In this document: positions 4,905 to 47,012 of the stretch, in pieces | How positions within the stretch are numbered: position 1 is the first letter of the stretch | Layout of the letters: every line of letters begins with the position of its first letter | Sequence record: PQ416618.1 | Length of the DNA: 64,000 bases | Direction: 5' to 3' (one strand) | DNA from: Escherichia phage vB_VIPECOMC06 | The notes under the pieces: generated by a model | The model's database searches: none | The model's input: the letters and a program-made list of their open reading frames with translations, nothing else | Told to the model about the DNA's origin: nothing | Made by a program: the position numbers and the translations under genes

Positions 4905-5192
4905 ATGATTCATCCATTTGACGTATCAGAATCCAAAATTGCTAATCTTCGTGGTCATCATAAGTGTAAATCAGTTTATTGTGCTAAATTGGTAAAACAT
5001 CCTGGTGATGCACACTACGGCTGGTTAGAATGCGACGAAGTTGTTATTGAAATTCCGCCTGTAGATGCAGAATATCTTGAAGAAGGTGACCGCATTTATT
5101 TTGGCGAACTACACATTAGAGGTATCTATGGTAAAGACGAACTTGGGACTGTTGAGACTGAAGAATCTTCCGACATTTATCCTGTCGAATGA
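4905..5192 (+). CDS. hypothetical protein (overlaps the denB start in another frame)
   Basis: 95-aa ORF with AGGGG Shine-Dalgarno 6 nt upstream; follows the rIIB terminator. Confidence 0.45.
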   Translation: MIHPFDVSESKIANLRGHHKCKSVYCAKLVKHPGDAHYGWLECDEVVIEIPPVDAEYLEEGDRIYFGELHIRGIYGKDELGTVETEESSDIYPVE

Positions 5193-5685
5193 GTTTTTGA
5201 CTAGTGAAATGAAGGTGAAGATTGCTGACACTGCTCGGTATTCCCTGAGCCAAAATCCTGGCCAAAACAAAGAAGATGTAGTTCGACGTTGTAAGGTTGC
5301 GGTCTTTGCAGAGTATGTAGTAGCAAATTGGCTAGACGGGTATGTTAATAAAGGTATTGAAGACGTAGAAGACCCGTACACGTATGCATGGGACGTGTTA
5401 GCCCATCCCAAGTATTGTGGAATTCGTGTAGAAGTCAAGACGCACCAGATAGATTCTAAATGGATTTCGGTTACCACAGGATACAGTGGTGATTATCCGG
5501 GTGGTAATGGAATCAATATAGGGCCCTTCTTGAACCATCGAGTCGCAGATTGCATTATTATATTAGATGTCAAAGAAACCTCACCTGACGTCTTCTCTTA
5601 TTCTATAAAGTTCGTGGGAGACCATGAAGACCTAAAGAAAATCGTCCGCAAGAGCAACTACAACGGGTGGTATCTTCAACTTTAA
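5128..5685 (+). CDS. denB: endonuclease IV (dC-specific ssDNA endonuclease), DenB-like
   Basis: ATG at 5128 with AGAGG SD gives 185 aa (T4 DenB length from memory) and places a Ser at residue 176, the residue reported as critical in T4 EndoIV; position downstream of rIIB fits. Confidence 0.5.
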   Translation: MVKTNLGLLRLKNLPTFILSNEFLTSEMKVKIADTARYSLSQNPGQNKEDVVRRCKVAVFAEYVVANWLDGYVNKGIEDVEDPYTYAWDVLAHPKYCGIRVEVKTHQIDSKWISVTTGYSGDYPGGNGINIGPFLNHRVADCIIILDVKETSPDVFSYSIKFVGDHEDLKKIVRKSNYNGWYLQL

Positions 5686-5696
5686 TTTCATAAAGT

Positions 5697-5730
5697 GTTT
5701 ACAACTAAGTAGGACTATGATATAGTAGTC
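5697..5730 (+). promoter_or_regulatory. T4-type early promoter with palindrome around -10
   Basis: GTTTACaactaagTAGGACTAtgaTATAGTAGTCCTAtc. Confidence 0.6.
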
Positions 5731-5752
5731 CTATCTAAAAGAGGATAACATC

Positions 5753-6016
5753 ATGAAATTTAAATTTTTCTACGCAAAACATAAAGTAACAGGCGAATTT
5801 GTTTCAATGTACAACACTGCAGATGACGAAGGGATGATTTATACCCATTTGGGACTATCTCATTGGGACTCGGACGTGCCTTATATGTCATCTGAAGCCG
5901 AAATAACTCGTCTGGTTAATGGACATATGAACGACCATTTTGGTGTTATTCTTTCTAAAGACCTTAAAGAGGTTATCAACAAAGGATATATGGAACTCGC
6001 GGAAGTTGAGATATGA
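5753..6016 (+). CDS. hypothetical early protein
   Basis: 87-aa ORF preceded by an early promoter and AGAGGA SD. Confidence 0.55.
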   Translation: MKFKFFYAKHKVTGEFVSMYNTADDEGMIYTHLGLSHWDSDVPYMSSEAEITRLVNGHMNDHFGVILSKDLKEVINKGYMELAEVEI

Positions 6017-6205
6017 GCTCTAAAACGTGGATCGGAATATGGCTGCTTAGTATCCCTATGATTTGTATAATATTTTCAATTGCATTGAGGTACTTATGAA
6101 AAATGCACTTATTGTACTAAGAACAATTTGCGATACAGGTTTTTACATCGCATGTTCGTTCACTGGAACATGGTTGGCTTTAACATATTTTAATGTAATT
6201 TAATT

Positions 6206-26280: not shown

Positions 26281-27976
<1,696 letters not shown>

Positions 27977-28319: not shown

Positions 28320-30575
28320 ATGCAAGTAATTAAGAGCAGTGGGGTATCCCAAAATTTTGATGCACAGAAAATTATTCAAGTCTTAACTTGGCAGTGTGAA
28401 GGAACACAAATCGACCCGTATGAATTGTATGAAGAAATTAAGACCCATCTGGTTGATGGGATGAGCACCAAAGATATCCAGAAGATTTGTATTAAAGTTG
28501 CAGCTAACTCGATTTCTGTCGAAGAACCTGATTATCAGTATGTCGCCGCCAAAGGGCTAATGTTTGCACTCCGTAAAGATGTATACGGACAGTTTGAACC
28601 GCCTGCTTTTATCGACCATATTTCTCACTGTGTTAATGAAGGCAAATACGACCCTGAGTTGTTGTCTCAATATTCAGCAGAAGAAATCATTTATCTCGAT
28701 TCACAGATTAAACATGAACGAGACTTTGACCTGACTTATGCTGGTGCTATGCAGCTTAAAGAAAAATATCTAGTTAAAGATAAAACAACTGGGAAGATTT
28801 ATGAAACTCCACAGTTTGCTATCATGGCTATTGGCATGGCCTTACACCAAGACGAAACTCATGACCGTTTGAAACATATTATTCGTTTTTATGATGCCGT
28901 TTCTACTCATCAAGTTTCATTGCCAACCCCAATTATGGCAGGTGCTCGTACTCCGACTCGCCAGTTCTCTAGTTGTGTAGTTATTGAAGCCGGTGATTCG
29001 TTAAAATCTATTAACAAAACTTCAGCATCAATTATTGAATATATTTCTAAACGAGCTGGTATCGGTATCAACGTTGGTATGCTTCGTGCAGAAGGTTCTA
29101 AGATCGGTACGGGTGAAGTTCGACATACAGGTGTTATTCCATTCTGGAAACATTTCCAAACTGCAGTAAAATCTTGTTCTCAAGGTGGTATTCGTGGTGG
29201 TGCTGCTACAGCGTATTATCCGATGTGGCACTTAGAAGTAGAGAACCTATTAGTTCTGAAAAATAACAAAGGGGTGGATGAAAACCGTATTCGACATATG
29301 GACTACGGAATTCAGATTAATGACCTTATGATGGAACGCCTTGGTAAAAATGATTATATTACTTTATTTAGCCCTCACGAAATGTCAGGCGAACTATACT
29401 ACTCGTTCTTTGAAGATCAAGATAAATTCCGTGAGCTTTATGAGAAAGCTGAAAAAGACCCGACAATCAGAAAGAAAAGAATCAAAGCACTAGAACTCTT
29501 TGAATTGTTCATGACTGAACGTTCTGGCACTGCTCGAATTTATCCACAATTCGTTGATAACACGAATAACTACACTCCGTTTATTCGCGAAAAAGCTCCA
29601 ATTCGTCAGAGTAACTTATGTTGTGAAATCGCTATTCCGACTAATGACGTGAATGGTCCTGATGCTGAAATTGGTTTATGCACATTATCTGCTTTTGTAT
29701 TAGATAAATTTGATTGGCAAGACCAAGATAAAATTAATGAACTTGCTGAAGTACAAGTACGTGCACTCGATAACCTGTTAGACTATCAAGATTATCCGGT
29801 TCCAGAAGCTTTAAAAGCTAAAAAGCGTCGTAACTTGGGTATTGGTGTGACGAACTATGCTGCATGGTTAGCTTCTAACTTTGCTTCATATGAAGACGCT
29901 AACGATTTGACTCATGAATTGTTTGAGAGATTGCAATATGGCCTTATCAAAGCTTCAATCAAACTCGCCAAAGAAAAAGGATGTTGCGAGTATTATTCAG
30001 ACACTAAATGGTCTAGAGGCGAATTACCTATCGACTGGTACAATAAAAAGATTGACCAAATCGCAGCCCCGAACTACGTCTGTGACTGGGAAGAACTTCG
30101 AGCTGAACTCAAAGAACATGGAATTCGTAACTCAACGTTGTCTGCACTCATGCCTTGTGAGTCAAGCAGTCAAGTATCGAACTCTACAAACGGGATTGAG
30201 CCCCCACGCGGTCCAGTAAGTATTAAAGAATCTAAAGAAGGCAACTTCCGACAGGTTGTTCCTAATATAGAACATAACATGAGTCTTTACGACTACGCGT
30301 GGAAACTTGCTAAGAAAGGTAATAAACCTTATTTGACCCAAGTTGCTATCATGTTGAAATGGGTGTGCCAATCTGCTTCTGCTAATACTTACTATGACCC
30401 TGCAGTATTTGAGAAAGGTAAAGTGCCAATGTCAGTAATGCTTGACGATCTACTTTACTTCTGGTACTTTGGTGGAAAAAACCTCTACTATCATAACACT
30501 CGTGATGGGTCAGGTACAGATGACTATGAATTAGAAACACCTAAAGCTGAAGATTGTTCTGCTTGTAAGCTTTAA
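28320..30575 (+). CDS. nrdA: aerobic ribonucleotide reductase large subunit
   Basis: 751 aa; class I RNR alpha subunit features; C-terminal ...CSACKL tail. Confidence 0.93.
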   Translation: MQVIKSSGVSQNFDAQKIIQVLTWQCEGTQIDPYELYEEIKTHLVDGMSTKDIQKICIKVAANSISVEEPDYQYVAAKGLMFALRKDVYGQFEPPAFIDHISHCVNEGKYDPELLSQYSAEEIIYLDSQIKHERDFDLTYAGAMQLKEKYLVKDKTTGKIYETPQFAIMAIGMALHQDETHDRLKHIIRFYDAVSTHQVSLPTPIMAGARTPTRQFSSCVVIEAGDSLKSINKTSASIIEYISKRAGIGINVGMLRAEGSKIGTGEVRHTGVIPFWKHFQTAVKSCSQGGIRGGAATAYYPMWHLEVENLLVLKNNKGVDENRIRHMDYGIQINDLMMERLGKNDYITLFSPHEMSGELYYSFFEDQDKFRELYEKAEKDPTIRKKRIKALELFELFMTERSGTARIYPQFVDNTNNYTPFIREKAPIRQSNLCCEIAIPTNDVNGPDAEIGLCTLSAFVLDKFDWQDQDKINELAEVQVRALDNLLDYQDYPVPEALKAKKRRNLGIGVTNYAAWLASNFASYEDANDLTHELFERLQYGLIKASIKLAKEKGCCEYYSDTKWSRGELPIDWYNKKIDQIAAPNYVCDWEELRAELKEHGIRNSTLSALMPCESSSQVSNSTNGIEPPRGPVSIKESKEGNFRQVVPNIEHNMSLYDYAWKLAKKGNKPYLTQVAIMLKWVCQSASANTYYDPAVFEKGKVPMSVMLDDLLYFWYFGGKNLYYHNTRDGSGTDDYELETPKAEDCSACKL

Positions 30576-30627
30576 GTCTTTTGATTATAATTTACTCATG
30601 GATGAGTTAAACTAAGTGAGAAATATA

Positions 30628-31806
30628 ATGAGTACAGTTTTTAACACACAACAAGTCGATGTTTTGAATGAGCCGATGTTCTTTGGTTCTGGTCTTGGTA
30701 TTGCGCGTTATGATATTCAACGCCATAAAGTTTTTGAAGATTTGACCGAAAAACAATTGTCATTTTTCTGGCGCCCCGAAGAGGTAAACTTGATGTTGGA
30801 CTCTGCGCAGTTCAATAAGCTTCCTCAGTTCCAACAGGACATCTTTACAAACAACCTTAAGTATCAATCATTATTAGATTCTATCCAAGGCAGAGCCCCA
30901 TCTGCGGTACTTATGGCACTGATTTCTGACCCTTCATTAGATACATGGGTTGCAACATGGACATTCAGTGAAACTATTCACTCTCGTTCGTATACTCATA
31001 TTATGCGAAATCTTTATACAGACCCATCTAAGGTATTTGATGAAATTGTATTAGACGAAGCAATCATGAAACGAGCTGAATCAATAGGTAAATATTACGA
31101 TGATGTTCTAGTTAAAACACGTGAATGGGAAAATGCTAAAGAAATTTTTAAATGTTTTTCCGAAAATGAATATGATTTGGATGCATATTCAAATAGTCTT
31201 ATGCATGTGGAAGAATGTAAACGTGCATTAATGAAGTCTCTTTATCTCTGCTTACACGTTATTAACGCCTTAGAAGCTATTCGTTTTTATGTATCTTTTG
31301 CATGTACTTTCAACTTCCATAAGAACATGGAAATCATGGAAGGTAATGCAAAGATTATGAAGTTCATCGCTCGTGACGAACAACTCCACCTTAAAGGCAC
31401 TCAGTACATTATCCGTCAACTTCAATCTGGTACTGATGGTGATGAGTGGGTTCAAATTGCTAAAGAATGTGAACAAGACGCAGTTGACATTTTTATGGAA
31501 GTAAATAGACAAGAGAAGGAATGGGCTGCACACCTCTTTAAAGACGGTACATGCCCGGGTATCAATACGCAGAGTATGTGTGCTTTTGTTGATTACTTGA
31601 CTGTGTCTCGTATGAAACAGTGCGGTTTGCCATGCCCAATAACTGATGCTCCGACCAAGCATCCGTATCCTTGGATTCGTGAATATCTGAACTCTGATTT
31701 AGTTCAATCAGCTCCTCAGGAAGTTGAAATCAGTTCTTATCTTGTCGCACAAATTGATAATGATGTAGACCAAAATGTAATCAATTCATACAAAAAATAT
31801 TTCTAA
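30628..31806 (+). CDS. nrdB: aerobic ribonucleotide reductase small subunit (uninterrupted, no intron)
   Basis: ATG at 30628 (MSTVFNTQQVDVLNEPMFFG...); continuous 392-aa ORF with R2 di-iron ligand helices. Confidence 0.93.
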   Translation: MSTVFNTQQVDVLNEPMFFGSGLGIARYDIQRHKVFEDLTEKQLSFFWRPEEVNLMLDSAQFNKLPQFQQDIFTNNLKYQSLLDSIQGRAPSAVLMALISDPSLDTWVATWTFSETIHSRSYTHIMRNLYTDPSKVFDEIVLDEAIMKRAESIGKYYDDVLVKTREWENAKEIFKCFSENEYDLDAYSNSLMHVEECKRALMKSLYLCLHVINALEAIRFYVSFACTFNFHKNMEIMEGNAKIMKFIARDEQLHLKGTQYIIRQLQSGTDGDEWVQIAKECEQDAVDIFMEVNRQEKEWAAHLFKDGTCPGINTQSMCAFVDYLTVSRMKQCGLPCPITDAPTKHPYPWIREYLNSDLVQSAPQEVEISSYLVAQIDNDVDQNVINSYKKYF

Positions 31807-37199: not shown

Positions 37200-38192
37200 A
37201 TGTTACCTGTCATCAGAAAACTTATTTCTCCAAAAGAACTGGCTGAGATTATTCCTTTGTCGGAAGCTTACGCATCACAAGTGGCTTCTCATCGCGAACA
37301 AGTTAATTCGATTATGAACGGTGAAGACCCACGCAAACTTATTGTTGTAGGTCCTTGTTCAATTCATGACCCTATTGCTGCTGTTGAATACGGCAAACGT
37401 CTGGCTGAACTTCAAACTCGTCTTCCTAATGTTCTGTTAGTGATGCGCGTTTATTTTGAAAAGCCTCGAACTACCGTAGGTTGGAAAGGTCTTGTAAATG
37501 ATCCATATCTTGACGGAAGTTTTGATATGAACCACGGTCTTATAGTTGCACGAACATTGTGTCGTAAACTTCTACGCATGGGACTTCCATTAGCAACTGA
37601 AGTATTAGACCCATTCACGATTAAGTATCTTTCTGGTATTTTCTCATGGGTTGCTATTGGCGCCCGTACGACTGAAAGTCAGACACATCGTGAAATTGCT
37701 TCAGGTCTACCGATGTGCGTAGGCTTCAAGAACGCAACCAATGGTTCTATTAAAGTAGCTACAGACGCGATGTATAGTGCCGCCTGGCCTCATCGGTATA
37801 TGGGTATGGACGTCGATGGTACTGTAGGCATTGTTGAAGCTGAAGGTAATCAGAATACGCATATCGTATTGCGTGGCGGGACTAACGGCCCGAACTATCA
37901 TTCTTCTGATATTCAAGAAGCTTCTAACAAAGCAAGTGCATTAGGTCTGAATCATTATGTAATGGTTGACTGTAGCCATGCAAACGCTGATGGGTATTAT
38001 AGCAATCAAATTGGTATTGGTAAAAATTTAGCAGCTAATGATTTGGTCAAAGGAATTATGATAGAATCATTCCTACATGAAGGAAATCAAAAAATTTCTG
38101 ATAATATGTCCTATGGCGTTTCCGTTACCGATGCGTGCATCAGTTGGGAACAAACTAAAGAGCTGTTAACTTATATTAATAAGGTTCAATAA
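37200..38192 (+). CDS. class I DAHP synthase homologue (3-deoxy-D-arabino-heptulosonate-7-phosphate synthase, AroG/AroF-like)
   Basis: 330 aa; conserved blocks VVGPCSIHD, VMRVYFEKPRTTVGWKGL, AIGARTTESQTHRE, VDCSHANA, MIESFLHEGNQ, VSVTDACISWEQT align with E. coli AroG active-site motifs; AAGGA SD. Confidence 0.85.
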   Translation: MLPVIRKLISPKELAEIIPLSEAYASQVASHREQVNSIMNGEDPRKLIVVGPCSIHDPIAAVEYGKRLAELQTRLPNVLLVMRVYFEKPRTTVGWKGLVNDPYLDGSFDMNHGLIVARTLCRKLLRMGLPLATEVLDPFTIKYLSGIFSWVAIGARTTESQTHREIASGLPMCVGFKNATNGSIKVATDAMYSAAWPHRYMGMDVDGTVGIVEAEGNQNTHIVLRGGTNGPNYHSSDIQEASNKASALGLNHYVMVDCSHANADGYYSNQIGIGKNLAANDLVKGIMIESFLHEGNQKISDNMSYGVSVTDACISWEQTKELLTYINKVQ

Positions 38193-41160: not shown

Positions 41161-41448
41161 ATGTTTATGACCACTTATTTCGATACTCGTAAAAATTTCT
41201 GTGAAGTTGTTTTCTCTAAAGCTGGTAAAGACGTTCCTGCCGACAAACAACCTACTCGTGAATCTATTAAGGCTTATGCTGATGTTGTATGCCCGGTAGA
41301 ATTCCGTACTGTTAATGGACGTGATACCCTGGCAATCACTAAGCTCAACCGTGACATCAATATCGACCCAAGTGTCGCCCGTGAAGTCAATACCTCTGAC
41401 ATCTATGGTGGTAATGTTAAATCACACGGCTTTCAGATGAGGTTCTAA
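41161..41448 (+). CDS. hypothetical protein
   Basis: ATG at 41161 downstream of the terminator hairpin; the track start at 41128 lies inside the hairpin. Confidence 0.45.
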   Translation: MFMTTYFDTRKNFCEVVFSKAGKDVPADKQPTRESIKAYADVVCPVEFRTVNGRDTLAITKLNRDINIDPSVAREVNTSDIYGGNVKSHGFQMRF

Positions 41449-41642
41449 TGCAACTATTCTTATCACAAACAGTCCAGTTAAAAGGCATAGGTATTCCTGG
41501 AATGATTTCAAAGGTTCTACCTGCTTTTAAATTAGGTAATGTTACTATTAAAAAAGCCTACGCCGTCTTATGGGTCGATGGAACTGAAGACGTTCGCATG
41601 AGTTCTGAATTAGAAGTTATCAAAAACCTTAAAAGACTATGA
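41448..41642 (+). CDS. hypothetical small protein
   Basis: 64-aa ORF. Confidence 0.45.
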   Translation: MQLFLSQTVQLKGIGIPGMISKVLPAFKLGNVTIKKAYAVLWVDGTEDVRMSSELEVIKNLKRL

Positions 41643-42091
41643 TTGAAATCAGAAGCAATTTTCCATGGCCGTCATGTGCATTAAGTAACTTTGCTAAATG
41701 GCCTTTTGTTATGGATGGTATTCAATTCGGAGGTCTTGAAGGATTTCTCCAAGGATGTAAGGTGAAAAATATTGAACAACAAAAACGTATATTTGGGTTG
41801 TCCGGATTGGCTGCACAGCAAGCTGGAAGGTCTTATGCAAGAGCTCAGGACCGTGGGACTCTCTTCTGGTTAGGAGTTCCATTTTCAAGATACTCCGAAG
41901 CGTGGAAAGAATTATACACAAATGCATATTTTGAAGCCGCGATCCAAAACAAGGGGTTTCGTGATGCCTTACAAGCCTCTAAAGGAAAAATTTTGAAGCA
42001 CAGCATGGCTAGCGGTCTAACAAAAGATGATACAATACTAACCGAAGCTGAATTTATTGATGTGTTAAACCTATTAAGAGACTCTTTATGA
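41639..42091 (+). CDS. NADAR/YbiA-like (DUF1768 family) domain protein
   Basis: 150 aa; LSNFAKWPFVMDGIQFGGLEGFLQGCKV resembles the YbiA core FSNFA.WP..VDG...SEHYFQAQKF; C-terminal region follows the same family pattern. Confidence 0.5.
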   Translation: MIEIRSNFPWPSCALSNFAKWPFVMDGIQFGGLEGFLQGCKVKNIEQQKRIFGLSGLAAQQAGRSYARAQDRGTLFWLGVPFSRYSEAWKELYTNAYFEAAIQNKGFRDALQASKGKILKHSMASGLTKDDTILTEAEFIDVLNLLRDSL

Positions 42092-42912
42092 AACCTACTA
42101 TTTTGACCGATATTGATGGTGTATGTTTAAGCTGGCAATCCGGACTTCCTTATTTTGCCCAAAAATATAATCTTCCATTAGAACATATTTTAAAAATGAT
42201 TCAGGACGAAAAATTTATTTCTCCTGGTAAACTATTCAATACCGACGATAACCTTGGTAAACAATTAATAGAAAAATATAATAGCTCTGATTTTATTCGT
42301 TACTTAGCGCCTTATTCAGATGCTCTTCGAGTTATCAATAAACTAAAAGAAGACTATAATTTTGTAGCCGTGACGGCGCTAGGTGATTCAATTGATGCTC
42401 GATTGAATAGACAATTTAATTTGAATGCTTTGTTCCCAGGCGCTTTCTCTGAAGTAATGATGTGTGGTCATGATTCTTCAAAGGAACAATTATTCGAACT
42501 AGCTAAAACAAAATATAACGTGATTTGTTACGTTGACGATTTAGCTCATCACTGTGACCATGCAGCAGAAATTCTTAATGTACCGATTTATTGGTTGGCT
42601 CGAGGTGAACGTGATGCCATTCCTCGTACTGCACAACGTGTACACACGTGGGATGATATTGAATCTCGTTTGGTTCCACCTGAGCATAAGTCAGGTTCAG
42701 ATCGTGAAGACCTTTTAAAACGATTGGCCGATTTGCTTAAAGAATCTGGTGCAACAAGTCCAGGTGCATGGCCTAATCAAATCGGCGGCCCCTCGACAAC
42801 ACGTACTCCATATACCTGGCGAACTCCAGGACCAACTGATATGCAGCCGTGGTGGACGATTCAAAACTTTCCTTTAGATTCGTCTAAATGGACTTGGTCT
42901 ATAAATTGTTAA
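42088..42912 (+). CDS. HAD-superfamily hydrolase-like protein
   Basis: 274 aa; N-terminal ILTDIDGV (HAD motif I, DxDG[TV]); later YVDD acidic motif. Confidence 0.5.
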   Translation: MKPTILTDIDGVCLSWQSGLPYFAQKYNLPLEHILKMIQDEKFISPGKLFNTDDNLGKQLIEKYNSSDFIRYLAPYSDALRVINKLKEDYNFVAVTALGDSIDARLNRQFNLNALFPGAFSEVMMCGHDSSKEQLFELAKTKYNVICYVDDLAHHCDHAAEILNVPIYWLARGERDAIPRTAQRVHTWDDIESRLVPPEHKSGSDREDLLKRLADLLKESGATSPGAWPNQIGGPSTTRTPYTWRTPGPTDMQPWWTIQNFPLDSSKWTWSINC

Positions 42913-42921
42913 GGGTTAATT

Positions 42922-43191
42922 ATGTTTGTAGTTCATGATATTACAGATGGCAAAAACACAACGCGTGACTACGGTCACGTTAACATGTTCTTTCGAGACT
43001 GGCCATTGTTTCGTTCAGTAAAAGACGCAGAAATATTTAAAGAGTGTGTTGAACAAGGGTTCATCTACATTTCAGAATACTATGTTGAAGGACTCGGTAA
43101 ATGGATTACCACTTATCAGAAAACGCTGAAATCGCTTCTAGATGAAGTGGCTTATAATAGAACCGTAACCAAAATCGAGGACATCAAATGA
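42922..43191 (+). CDS. hypothetical small protein
   Basis: 89-aa ORF with AGGG SD. Confidence 0.5.
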   Translation: MFVVHDITDGKNTTRDYGHVNMFFRDWPLFRSVKDAEIFKECVEQGFIYISEYYVEGLGKWITTYQKTLKSLLDEVAYNRTVTKIEDIK

Positions 43192-44681
43192 TTTTAGATA
43201 TTTTAAACCAAATAGCTGCGATCGGTTCTACTAAAACAAAACAAGAAATCCTTAAGAAAAATAAGGACAACAAATTACTTGAACGTGTGTATCGTTTAAC
43301 ATATGCACGTGGTATCCAGTATTATATTAAGAAATGGCCGGGGCCAGGTGAAAGGTCTCAAGCATATGGTCTTCTTGAATTAGATGACATGTTGGATTTT
43401 ATTGAGTTCACATTAGCCACTCGTAAACTCACTGGTAATGCTGCAATTAAAGAGCTCATGGGTTATATCGCTGATGGTAAACCTGATGATGTAGAAGTCC
43501 TTCGACGTGTAATGATGCGCGACCTTGAAGTAGGTGCTTCAGTGTCTATCGCGAATAAGGTGTGGCCTGGACTTATTCAATTGCAACCACAGATGTTAGC
43601 ATCTGCATATGATGAGAAATTGATTACTAAAAATATTAAATGGCCTGCATTTGCCCAATTAAAAGCAGATGGTGCTCGTTGTTTCGCTGAAGTTCGCGAT
43701 GATGGTGTTCAATTCTTTTCTCGTGCCGGTAACGAATATCACGGTCTTACTCTATTAGCGGATGAACTAATGGAAATGACTAAAGAAGCTCGTGAAAGAC
43801 ACCCTAATGGGGTTTTAATCGACGGTGAATTAGTTTATCATTCATTTGATATTAAAAAGGCTGTGAGCTCAGGAAATGACCTGTCGTTCTTATTTGGTGA
43901 TAATGAAGAATCTGAAGAAGTACAAGTTGCAGACCGTAGCACTTCAAATGGTTTAGCAAATAAATCTCTTCAAGGGACTATTTCTCCTAAAGAAGCGGAA
44001 GGTATGGTTCTTCAAGCCTGGGACTATGTTCCTTTAGATGAAGTCTATTCTGATGGCAAAATTAAAGGTCAGAAATACGATGTTCGTTTTGCTGCTCTTG
44101 AAAATATGGCTGAAGGCTTTAAGCGAATTGAGCCAATTGAAAATCAGTTAGTTCGTAATCTTGATGAAGCTAAAGTGGTTTATAAAAAATATGTTGACCA
44201 AGGTCTTGAAGGTATTATCCTTAAAAACCGTGATTCATATTGGGAAAACAAACGCTCTAAGAACCTAATTAAATTTAAAGAAGTTATTGATATCGCTTTA
44301 GAAGTTGTAGGATACTATGAACACTCTAAAGACCCTAACAAATTAGGTGGTGTCGAACTCGTATCACGTTGTCGTCGTATTACAACCGATTGTGGTTCAG
44401 GGTTTAAAGATACAACTCATAAAACAGTTGACGGTGTAAAGGTTCTTATTCCTTTAGACGAGCGTCATGATTTAGACCGTGAACGATTAATGACCGAAGC
44501 TCGTGAAGGTAAATTAATTGGACGTATCGCTGATTGTGAATGTAATGGTTGGGTTCATTCTAAAGGCCGTGAAGGTACTGTAGGTATTTTCCTTCCAATT
44601 ATTAAAGGGTTCCGTTTTGATAAAACAGAAGCGGATTCGTTTGAAGACGTATTTGGACCGTGGTCCCAGACAGGTTTATAA
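43188..44681 (+). CDS. 30: ATP-dependent DNA ligase
   Basis: 497 aa; MILDILNQIAAIGSTK.KQ.IL.KNKDN.LL.RVYRLTY.RG.QYYIKKWP... and adenylation lysine motif FAQLKADGARCFAEV match T4 DNA ligase. Confidence 0.95.
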   Translation: MILDILNQIAAIGSTKTKQEILKKNKDNKLLERVYRLTYARGIQYYIKKWPGPGERSQAYGLLELDDMLDFIEFTLATRKLTGNAAIKELMGYIADGKPDDVEVLRRVMMRDLEVGASVSIANKVWPGLIQLQPQMLASAYDEKLITKNIKWPAFAQLKADGARCFAEVRDDGVQFFSRAGNEYHGLTLLADELMEMTKEARERHPNGVLIDGELVYHSFDIKKAVSSGNDLSFLFGDNEESEEVQVADRSTSNGLANKSLQGTISPKEAEGMVLQAWDYVPLDEVYSDGKIKGQKYDVRFAALENMAEGFKRIEPIENQLVRNLDEAKVVYKKYVDQGLEGIILKNRDSYWENKRSKNLIKFKEVIDIALEVVGYYEHSKDPNKLGGVELVSRCRRITTDCGSGFKDTTHKTVDGVKVLIPLDERHDLDRERLMTEAREGKLIGRIADCECNGWVHSKGREGTVGIFLPIIKGFRFDKTEADSFEDVFGPWSQTGL

Positions 44682-44869
44682 TGAAAGCTTATTTAGAAAC
44701 AGTTGTTGTAGCTAAGAAGGATGGTGGAGATGTTTCCACCTCTTGCTCTCAGATTATATTAGATTTTCCTAATGAAAATTCGTATCGGGTTTTCGTAGAT
44801 AACGTTAATGGGTACGAAAAAGGCCCCAATTTTGAAGTTTATCGCACTTTGCTCCCGATTGTAGATTAA
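44681..44869 (+). CDS. hypothetical small protein
   Basis: ATG overlapping gp30 stop (TAATG); 62 aa; followed by a terminator. Confidence 0.45.
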   Translation: MKAYLETVVVAKKDGGDVSTSCSQIILDFPNENSYRVFVDNVNGYEKGPNFEVYRTLLPIVD

Positions 44870-44888
44870 GAGCCTTCGGGCTCTTTTT
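44868..44888 (+). terminator. intrinsic terminator after gene 30 region
   Basis: AGAGCCTTCGGGCTCT hairpin followed by TTTTT. Confidence 0.8.
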
Positions 44889-44924
44889 GGCATAAATATA
44901 AATTATTACTAAAAGGAAAACACT

Positions 44925-47012
44925 ATGTCTGAACAATTAAATGAAGTGTTTGAATCTGAAGGCAGTCTTCCTGTCGTCAATTTGAACCCTAAAGCTAAAG
45001 TTCCACAAGTCTGGAAAATTGGTGATGTTGATACAAACATTGTAGTTCGCTTATTCTCTTACCTTTCTGAAGGCGATGCTGTAAAACAAGTTAAACTTGG
45101 CGACAAATACGCTCATGTTGTTATTATGAGTCTGTCTGAAAAGGGTAATCTCGCTGAATTGAAAAACGGCCTTGGTCCTGCTCCTATTGATGCAATCAAC
45201 ACCATTTTCAATACAGTATATGAACAAGTTAAAGCTCTTCGTATGGATGCAGTTCTGTTCCGATTCCCTACAAAGAAATTGAAAGGACGCGGACAACAAC
45301 TTCAAACTCTTCTTGCTCGTTTAGTTTCTACTAAAACCGGTGGTCGTTTTAAAGTATTGTCGGCAATGTATCAATTCACAGGTAAACACACCTATGTGAT
45401 GATGGTTCGTAAAAATGCTAACATTGAAGATATTAAAGGCATCCCTAACATTAACACAGAGTTGTACACGAAAGTTGATTCTGACGTTGGAGAAGTTTAT
45501 GTGAGTAAAAAGACTGGTGAAATGGTCACCAAAGAAACGGCTATCGCTGGTTCTATTGCTGCTGTAGAAGAAAAACGTAAAGATAAGCCTGTTATTGCTC
45601 GTACTAAAATTTCTCGTCGTGCTATTGCAGCAAGTCAATCTTTAGAAGCTGACCGCCAAGAAGGTGAGTTATTCCAGAAATACGAAAATTCTGCTAAAGA
45701 AGTTAGTGGCCCAGCTACAGCCGAATTACTTCCTGAAGCATATGAAATCGTACTAGCCCAAGCATCGTCCACAGCAAAAGGCACTTTAGTTGCTGATATC
45801 GAAAATAAGATTTATAATCGTATTGATGAATCCTTTAGATTTGCTGATGAAGTTTCTTATGGTAGTGTTATTAAACCAACTTTAGAAAAGTTTGCTAAGA
45901 AAATTAAAACTGAAAAAACAACATCTGTTAAAGCATTAGCTGCTTTTGTTGAAGCTGCAAATGAAATTGCAGACTCTATTAAAGACGAATGGTTTGAAGA
46001 TTTTAGACGTGATAATTTCCAACTGGCTGACGACGTTTTAGCTGAAGTATCTGAAAAAACTTGGAAACAACGTAAATCAGCGTTCTTGTCTAATGTGATG
46101 TATACTTATGCACGAGAATCGGCTAGAGGCACCTTTAATATAACAATGAATCGGGTCCCTAATCAATACTCTGTTGCTGAAAAACGAGCTATTCGTGAAT
46201 ATGCCTCTTCTGCGTATACTGATATCAATAATATGTTGTTAGGTCGTTATAAACCAGATTTTTACGATGTTGCAGATGAAGATGAAGTTAAACGCGCTAT
46301 TGATGGTCTTGATTCAGCGTTTTTAAATGGAGACCGTTTACCTGAAGGACTAACGTTATATAGAGCTCAGTCTATCAGAATGCCTATTTACGAAGCAATG
46401 GTTAAAAATAAGGTATTCTACTTCAGAAACTATGTTTCCACTTCACTAGCTCCTATTATTTTCGGTGGGTTTAAAGAGAACGTTGCCCTTGGACTTGCTC
46501 CTGAAGAAGTTCGCAAAGAGCTTAACATTGACAATAATGACGAAGGTGTTACTATTTCTCCTAGTCTGGTGCGTACCGCTATGCATGCACCAGACCAAAT
46601 CCGTGTTAACGTTGGATGGGCTATTGATGGCGCCCATAAAGTTAACGTGATTTATCCTGGACAGTTGAGTAATCACCCTAATGAGCAAGAAATTATTTTG
46701 CCTAGAGGTATTCTCTTGCAGATAAATAAAATTACAGATGCGTCATCTGACACCGGTGCAGGTTTAGAATCCAACCTTAAATTTATTCAAGCTGAAGTCA
46801 TGTCCTCAGACCAGTTGGACGAAGCTGTCATTTACGATGGTGATGTTCTCATGGAAACAGGCGAGGTGGTTGCTATGACTGGTGAAATCGAATCGGATGA
46901 GCCGGTATCGTTCTCTTCATTTGTAGAAAAAACTAGTGCTCCTAAAGGATTGAAATTGTTAGCATCTTTAATGGATTTAGAATCAGTTCCGTTTAAATTT
47001 GTCCAAGGATAG
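44925..47012 (+). CDS. alt: Alt ADP-ribosyltransferase (packaged, modifies host RNA polymerase)
   Basis: 695 aa; location after gene 30 and overall match to T4 Alt; ART-like Y..Y.R..S / STS region near residues 480-520. Confidence 0.85.
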   Translation: MSEQLNEVFESEGSLPVVNLNPKAKVPQVWKIGDVDTNIVVRLFSYLSEGDAVKQVKLGDKYAHVVIMSLSEKGNLAELKNGLGPAPIDAINTIFNTVYEQVKALRMDAVLFRFPTKKLKGRGQQLQTLLARLVSTKTGGRFKVLSAMYQFTGKHTYVMMVRKNANIEDIKGIPNINTELYTKVDSDVGEVYVSKKTGEMVTKETAIAGSIAAVEEKRKDKPVIARTKISRRAIAASQSLEADRQEGELFQKYENSAKEVSGPATAELLPEAYEIVLAQASSTAKGTLVADIENKIYNRIDESFRFADEVSYGSVIKPTLEKFAKKIKTEKTTSVKALAAFVEAANEIADSIKDEWFEDFRRDNFQLADDVLAEVSEKTWKQRKSAFLSNVMYTYARESARGTFNITMNRVPNQYSVAEKRAIREYASSAYTDINNMLLGRYKPDFYDVADEDEVKRAIDGLDSAFLNGDRLPEGLTLYRAQSIRMPIYEAMVKNKVFYFRNYVSTSLAPIIFGGFKENVALGLAPEEVRKELNIDNNDEGVTISPSLVRTAMHAPDQIRVNVGWAIDGAHKVNVIYPGQLSNHPNEQEIILPRGILLQINKITDASSDTGAGLESNLKFIQAEVMSSDQLDEAVIYDGDVLMETGEVVAMTGEIESDEPVSFSSFVEKTSAPKGLKLLASLMDLESVPFKFVQG

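Follow-up and report, generated by a model that had tools for sequence, protein, structure and literature searches.

We analysed a window of 64,000 nucleotides (nt) of Escherichia phage vB_VIPECOMC06 (PQ416618.1), one strand read 5' to 3', for the block at 41639-47012, which an earlier note had described as NADAR-like and HAD-like genes clustered near the ADP-ribosyltransferase (ART) Alt. The source of the window is a T4-like phage of the Mosigvirus/RB69 group. The 5.7 kb around the locus are 97-98% identical to Escherichia phages vB_EcoM-RPN187, AV112, and AV113, and 750 T4-like phage records match the same 5.7 kb; the taxonomy of RPN187 is Straboviridae, Tevenvirinae, genus Mosigvirus, which is the genus of RB69. 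The block itself is the conserved T-even block 30.3-30.2-30.1-30(ligase)-alt.1-alt (Table 1). The gene order pseT, cd, 31, rIII, 30.9...30.3, 30.2, 30.1, 30, alt.1, alt, and alt.-3 is the same as in T4 and RB69, and genes 54, 48, 29 and those that follow lie on the other strand beyond alt.-3. The open reading frames (ORFs) listed in the earlier note and the peptides quoted from them were all found in place on the plus strand. We conclude that the 150-amino-acid (aa) product of 30.3, judged by its T4 orthologue, is AdfN, an ADP-ribosyl-guanine DNA glycohydrolase that counters DarTG1, and that the block probably consists of three independent functions (AdfN, a gp30.2 phosphatase, and Alt) held together by inherited gene order.

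Table 1. Genes and signals of the 30.3-alt block and its upstream neighbour, in positions of the window.
Feature	Position	Strand	Evidence
gp30.5 orthologue, 64 aa	41448..41642	+	phrog_1690 E 9e-27; 63% identity to T4 gp30.5
gp30.3, AdfN by orthology with T4, phage-type NADAR, 150 aa	41639..42091	+	PF08010 (Phage_30_3) E 5.4e-68
gp30.2, predicted divergent HAD phosphatase, 274 aa	42088..42912	+	phrog_420 E 4.5e-77
gp30.1, DUF3045	42922..43191	+	PF11243 E 1.4e-26
gp30, ATP-dependent DNA ligase	43188..44681	+	PF01068 E 1.9e-26; phrog_114 E 5e-155
alt.1, small conserved protein (Pfam Phage_blade)	44681..44869	+	PF24647 E 4e-29
Hairpin and late-promoter-like signal, intergenic	44869..44904	+	read from sequence
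Alt ADP-ribosyltransferase, 695 aa; ART domain residues 409-610	44925..47012	+	PF03496 E 1.8e-28; phrog_802 E 6e-260

For the 150-aa ORF, which contains ALSNFAKWPFVMDGIQFGGLEGFLQGCKV, the profile search proposed in the earlier note came out divided. The phage family PF08010 was matched with 227.5 bits, where the cutoff is 36, over residues 10-148 of 150, and it was the only Pfam family reported at E<=10, whereas the general NADAR/YbiA model of Pfam (DUF1768/NADAR) gave no match, nor did NCBIfam or PADLOC. A search of the PDB with the single gp30.3 sequence also returned no match; a profile built from ten sequences of the gp30.3 family matched the YbiA of Escherichia coli (2b3w; E 1e-3) along the very LSNF...DG...E...Q..K core that had caught attention in the earlier note. 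The AlphaFold2 model of gp30.3 reached a predicted local distance difference test score (pLDDT) of 81.9 and a predicted template-modelling score of 0.80, with the first 20 residues weak. When this model was submitted to Foldseek, the matches were YbiA 2b3w (E 2.2e-4, template-modelling score 0.63), PnNADAR 8bau, and GlNADAR 8bat, with probabilities of 1.00, 0.99, and 0.91, and all further matches had a probability of at most 0.02. These are the three solved NADAR structures, 8bau being the Phytophthora NADAR with ADP-ribose and 8bat the NADAR of Geobacter DarG1, and they were the sole credible matches in the PDB. The NADAR-like character first suggested for this ORF is thus borne out by PF08010, by the family profile, and by the NADAR fold, in which small beta-hairpins flank a helical core. 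gp30.3 belongs to the NADAR superfamily and not to the YbiA family proper, to which it is linked only at the level of profile and fold.

The function is taken from T4. T4 gp30.3 belongs to the 'phage NADAR' family and in vitro cleaves ADP-ribose from the guanines of DNA by hydrolysis (PMC11543638, PMC11125620, PMC12945103; see also Schuller 2023 and Toxins 2024); it was renamed AdfN by Johannesman et al. (Nat Commun 2025, PMC11825919). T-even phages require AdfN to resist DarTG1, a toxin-antitoxin defence, and AdfN is also sufficient for this resistance (PMC11825919); its role against DarTG1 was confirmed independently by HIDEN-SEQ, a T4 transposon screen (bioRxiv 10.1101/2025.11.20.689424). 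The gp30.3 of the window is 95% identical to T4 AdfN, keeps the same Glu, Lys, and His and an intact C-terminal helix, and is encoded in the same place, immediately upstream of 30.2. It differs in length (150 instead of 152 aa, from a shifted start codon) and by 7 substitutions, and its upstream neighbour is the gp30.5 orthologue, the 30.4 of T4 being absent. Residues E36 and K43 of T4 AdfN contact ADP-ribose and matter for activity (PMC11825919); they align to E34 and K41 of the window protein; across the family alignment, E34 never varies and K41 hardly does. H121, also invariant, lies in the last strand of the model (119-121), and a His in place of Glu/Asp in the last strand is a hallmark of phage NADARs (PMC11125620). 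The corresponding residue is Asp in DarG1 and Glu in YbiA, and H121 is the putative counterpart of E125 in PnNADAR. The C-terminal stretch (136-149), on which full activity depends, is helical in the model and identical to that of T4. Two functional suggestions of the earlier note, reversal of nucleic-acid ADP-ribosylation and counter-defence against a host ADP-ribosylating toxin, therefore hold for the T4 orthologue, which removes guanine ADP-ribose and acts against DarT1 (PMC11825919, PMC11125620, HIDEN-SEQ). The idea of an AdfN-type counter-defence was right but is already known from T4.

Within the genus, the comparison is with RB69, which is reported to be sensitive to DarTG1 because a T insertion cuts off the last 15 residues of its gp30.3 (PMC11825919). 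The window allele is 96% identical to RB69 gp30.3 over the shared part and occupies the same locus, but it is free of the insertion that removes the terminal helix from RB69. In IMG/VR, the RB69-type junction sequence was found 0 times and the intact junction 8 times. Because the allele is full length, carries the catalytic residues, and lacks the RB69 truncation, the phage of the window is predicted to resist DarTG1. Beyond the phages, the DarG1 NADAR antitoxins (Geobacter lovleyi 8bat and E. coli C7) and YbiA (2b3w) have the fold, the core motif, and the guanine-ADP-ribose hydrolysis chemistry in common with AdfN. However, the phage NADAR is a bare core domain without the extra N-terminal elements of DarG1, and it is not encoded beside DarT.

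To compare the genes of the block, we used the T4 figures from the DarTG1 sheet of the HIDEN-SEQ data. On the DarTG1 host, 30.3 was depleted with a log2 fold change of -7.25 (adjusted p 0), a 150-fold drop, whereas 30.2, with 71 TA sites, stood at -0.12 (p 0.61) and alt at -0.01 (p 0.97). On defence-free K-12, 27 of the 28 TA sites in 30.3 and 72 of the 72 in 30.2 were hit, so that both genes are non-essential there. Since T4 can do without 30.3 where the host lacks the defence, AdfN is no antidote to the phage's own ART. In the same sheet, T4 30.4 was mildly but significantly depleted on DarTG1 (log2 fold change -1.79, adjusted p 0.014) and 30.5 was at -3.0, non-significant; the text of the paper discusses neither, and the depletion of both is probably polarity on 30.3. 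We also considered T4 gp30.4 as a cofactor of AdfN and rejected it, as 30.4 lacks an orthologue in the window phage and in RB69, yet AdfN fully rescues RB69.

At the other end of the block, the gap between alt.1 and alt contains a hairpin (GAGCC-TTCG-GGCTC) with a T run, followed by CATAAATATAAATT, in which the T4 late-promoter box TATAAATA is matched twice, each time at 7/8 positions. The hairpin upstream of alt was unlisted in the consensus terminator scan, and the sigma-70 promoter and terminator scans were at background (27 versus 23 expected and 5 versus 5.5 expected, respectively) and were left unused. We infer from the letters of this gap that alt would be transcribed separately from the 30.x-30 unit. 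The RefSeq notes of T4 and RB69 state that Alt is packaged in the capsid, and the putative late box before alt fits this description. The Alt of the window matches the Alt family over its full length and occupies the same position as T4 Alt, between alt.1 and alt.-3/gene 54; the difference is the partial duplication alt.-1/alt.-2 of T4, which is absent in the window phage and RB69. The Alt ART is therefore present near gene 30, as had been noticed earlier, but not just downstream of it, because alt.1 and the hairpin with the late-promoter-like element stand between.

The earlier note had gone further and suggested an ADP-ribosylation writer plus potential eraser or processing enzymes. Read as one module, Alt would be the writer, gp30.3 the eraser, and gp30.2 an ADP-ribose processing enzyme, and the NADAR would tune or clean up the ART activity of the phage itself. 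The three genes do lie within 5.4 kb on one strand, and Alt falls in the exotoxin-type ART family PF03496, which shares its broad class, R-S-E, with pierisin/ScARP, the guanine-modifying enzymes whose marks NADARs reverse. Additionally, T4-like NADARs have been described as expressed near ARTs, and viral NADARs as often linked to phosphatases such as DUF4326 (Iyer et al. 2022). Such a unit is nevertheless not supported. On the very host that makes 30.3 essential to T4, insertions in alt or 30.2 are neutral, and the dispensability of 30.3 without the defence speaks against detoxification of Alt. The genes part in other T4-like genera, with alt on the opposite strand in several of them; a separate hairpin and late-promoter-like box stand before alt; and the published AdfN substrate is guanine-ADP-ribose on DNA. 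An ART and a hydrolase that are co-inherited and act on the same adduct, as in DarT-DarG1, are not what was found at alt and 30.3. We regard a single writer-eraser module as highly improbable.

The second gene of the block encodes the 274-aa ORF that begins MKPTILTDIDGV. Its HAD motif I reads D8-I-D10-G-V, with D8 and D10 invariant in an alignment of 45 homologues and the Asp+2 typical of phosphatases; T96 of motif II is nearly invariant, and K132 of motif III and D150 and D151 of motif IV are invariant. The gp30.2 model has a pLDDT of 83.5 and is confident for residues 1 to ~197, with the core mostly above 90. A helical, C1-type cap is formed by helices in 16-86, between strand 1 with motif I and the core strand 91-96. 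The Foldseek search of the PDB gave 111 matches at E<=1e-3, dominated by HAD hydrolases; cdN 2jao (E 2.6e-8), the deoxyribonucleotidase-like 3bwv, and mdN came first, with other capped HADs close behind. The nearest named relatives among the viral models are 5'-nucleotidases. In sequence comparison, phmmer gave E 0.11 for gp30.2 against 2jao, six of the 45 family members matched NT5C (PF06941), all weakly and at best with E 0.002, and weak Hydrolase, NT5C, and HAD_2 matches in Pfam occurred among individual family members. PADLOC gave no match for gp30.2. The HAD-like reading of this ORF is thereby upheld by the four conserved motifs and by the HAD core fold of the model, whereas on the profile side no Pfam or NCBIfam threshold was reached.

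A capped HAD active site encloses its substrate and favours small ones, and the HADs that act on macromolecules, such as PNKP, are capless. Since the active site of gp30.2 is capped, a small substrate is expected. As modelled, gp30.2 is a genuine, though divergent, HAD phosphatase with a cap, closest to the 5'(3')-deoxyribonucleotidases, and we infer a nucleotide or sugar-phosphate phosphatase with a (deoxy)nucleotide as the most likely substrate, the subfamily call being soft. Like gp30.2, the cdN/mdN enzymes (NT5C) and PBS1 Dtm are capped HADs whose nucleophile motif is DxDG(V), and Dtm is a phage mdN-like HAD that acts as a deoxynucleoside monophosphate (thymidine monophosphate) phosphatase (PMC12697855). 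However, the identity of gp30.2 to cdN/mdN is 13-18%, and the extra disordered Trp/Pro-rich tail is its own.

The gp30.2 of the window is 69% identical to that of T4, and phrog_420 carries the label 'unknown function'. A profile search for cellular relatives returned T4-like phage proteins only, and the family seems to be confined to these phages; literature searches found no functional study of gp30.2. The tail mentioned above (residues ~197-274, at 42676-42912) has a pLDDT below 50 and is disordered at 226-274. It is hypervariable across genera, in length as well as in sequence, and absent from the ~200-aa homologues of Acinetobacter, Shewanella, and Serratia phages, and only a short TWRTPG-like patch is held in common with T4. 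It may be an interaction tail.

The neighbourhood was compared in IMG/VR loci, of which 78 were anchored on gp30.2 and 25 on NADAR. The ligase gene lies just downstream of gp30.2 in 72 of the 78 loci, usually within 300 bp and across very divergent T4-like genera, and this adjacency is kept even where gp30.1 and the NADAR have been lost. A gp30.3-type NADAR was present within 5 kb of gp30.2 in 37 of the 78 loci and adjacent to it in 22. From the other side, neither gp30.2 nor the ligase was nearby in 7 of the 25 NADAR-anchored loci. In two contigs, L099/L051 (IMGVR_UViG_2974754850_000001) and L102/L027 (2706796257_000001), the NADAR is tens of kb from gp30.2-ligase, from which we conclude that the NADAR has moved within Straboviridae genomes. 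A conserved partner beside the relocated NADARs was looked for and rejected, the neighbours being unrelated (a glycosyltransferase, DUF7338, an HD domain protein, and a VWA/DUF2828 protein). Two further loci are recorded here as observations. In L104:5001-6174, the gene of an HD-domain phosphohydrolase (5446-6174; PF01966 E 6e-12) overlaps the 3' end of the NADAR gene (5001-5453), which gives another, independent case of a NADAR paired with a phosphohydrolase. In L105:4983-5444, on a 256-kb viral contig, a gp30.3-type NADAR is split into the adjacent ORFs 4983-5204 and 5208-5444, which suggests an in-frame stop or a pseudogene.

The persistence of the gp30.2-ligase pair, even without gp30.1 and NADAR, raises the question of whether gp30.2 works with DNA ligase on DNA ends or nicks, for instance by taking off 3'-phosphates so that the ends can be ligated. 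Healing of DNA and RNA ends is a known activity of HAD phosphatase domains, the Pnkp of the window itself has an HAD_PNKP domain, and PNKP phosphatases were among the distant structural matches of gp30.2. On the other hand, the best structural matches are nucleotidases and not PNKP, the substantial helical cap favours small substrates as set out above, and a Pnkp is already encoded by the phage. Adjacency to a core gene may be inherited synteny, and in T4 gene 30 is essential while 30.2 is non-essential (HIDEN-SEQ). A role beside the ligase is, on balance, unlikely.

A different role for gp30.2 is suggested by published work on AdfN. AdfN(T4) was fully active only during T-even infection, and an additional T-even cofactor was proposed; the protein had no antitoxin function in uninfected cells and rescued T5 and Bas25 poorly, whereas RB69 was fully rescued by ectopic AdfN (PMC11825919). 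gp30.2 could be the additional T-even protein that AdfN(T4) needs in vivo, either by clearing phosphates derived from ADP-ribose or by localising or stabilising AdfN through its disordered tail. It is intact in the fully rescued RB69, the 30.3/30.2 pair is translationally coupled through an ATGA overlap here, in T4, and in RB69-group phages, and in the unrelated locus L104 an HD phosphohydrolase gene overlaps the NADAR stop. Against this, insertions in 30.2 cost no fitness on DarTG1 in the very experiment in which 30.3 fell 150-fold, and gp30.2 stands beside the ligase in many phages without a nearby NADAR, as NADARs also occur without gp30.2. We find such a cofactor very unlikely. There is likewise little chance, if slightly more, that gp30.2 dephosphorylates an ADP-ribose-derived or defence-related nucleotide and that its coupling with AdfN marks a two-step pathway, be it as the T-even potentiating factor or as another counter-defence; if this were true, the T4 transposon data could have masked its role through redundancy or conditions.

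We therefore favour three independent functions in the block, for three reasons: the neutrality of 30.2 and alt in the T4 transposon data, the separation of the genes across genera, and the hairpin and late-promoter-like signal of alt itself. In a host carrying DarTG1, guanines in the phage DNA would be ADP-ribosylated, and AdfN would hydrolyse the N-glycosidic bond between ADP-ribose and guanine, releasing ADP-ribose and restoring replicable DNA. gp30.2 would be a Mg2+-dependent HAD phosphomonoesterase acting on a small phosphorylated compound, for which a (deoxy)nucleotide is the likeliest candidate, and would not be needed for the anti-DarTG1 function of AdfN. Alt would be a separately expressed, virion-packaged protein ADP-ribosyltransferase.

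Several points weigh against this interpretation. The 4-nt overlap of 30.3 and 30.2 is present here and in T4, so the two are probably co-translated, as expected of partners, and AdfN(T4) is reported to need a further T-even factor for full activity (PMC11825919). The neutrality of 30.2 comes from T4 with a plasmid-borne DarTG1 in rich medium, and 30.2 may be redundant or act under other conditions. The IMG/VR loci entered the comparison without de-replication, so that the synteny counts overweight well-sampled genera. For gp30.2, the Foldseek E-values of many HAD subfamilies are within one log, which leaves the subfamily call soft, and the protein stays below the curated thresholds (HAD_2, 16 bits versus 23.8; TIGR01428, 12.7 versus 125). 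The AdfN allele of the window also carries 7 substitutions relative to that of T4 and lacks 2 N-terminal residues.

The genes of the 64-aa gp30.5 orthologue and of gp30.3 have a stop/start overlap of 4 nt. T4 gp30.4 gave no alignment to the 64-aa ORF at 41448-41642, the 30.4 orthologue being absent from the window phage and from RB69; the RefSeq record of RB69 calls the counterpart of the 64-aa protein 'gp30.4'. The start of alt.1 is probably the ATG at 44681, which overlaps the ligase stop (TAATG), and an alt.1 coding sequence of 189 nt is annotated in RPN187, RB69, and T4. T4 has an annotated out-of-frame gene 30.3' (228 nt inside 30.3). No plus-strand ORF of at least 40 aa was found in another frame within the 30.3 of the window, and this lack of a counterpart suggests that 30.3' is not a real gene.

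Farther upstream, between pseT and cd, a 330-aa protein of the DAHP-synthetase-I family (PF00793 E 2e-74; KdsA/AroG-type aldolase family) is encoded at 37200-38192 on the plus strand. The stretch of T4 that was examined has no DAHP-synthetase-I gene directly before cd; in the RB69 group, the gene may serve as an auxiliary gene for sugar phosphates. Three long ORFs (27116-27976, 28320-30575, and 30616-31806) are at the positions of T4 td, nrdA, and nrdB, identities that are taken from map order only. The whole 64,000-nt window had no tRNA genes and no Rfam families at the gathering threshold, so no group I intron was detected.

In most of the deposited relatives, these genes still carry 'hypothetical protein' labels. 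gp30.2 emerges as a conserved, Straboviridae-restricted predicted HAD phosphatase and a target for a simple biochemical screen, with nothing that points to unusual biology. The 150-aa gene can be named AdfN. As the allele of this Mosigvirus is intact, unlike the truncated one of RB69, the phage is predicted to form plaques on E. coli carrying DarTG1, which matters for choosing therapeutic phages.

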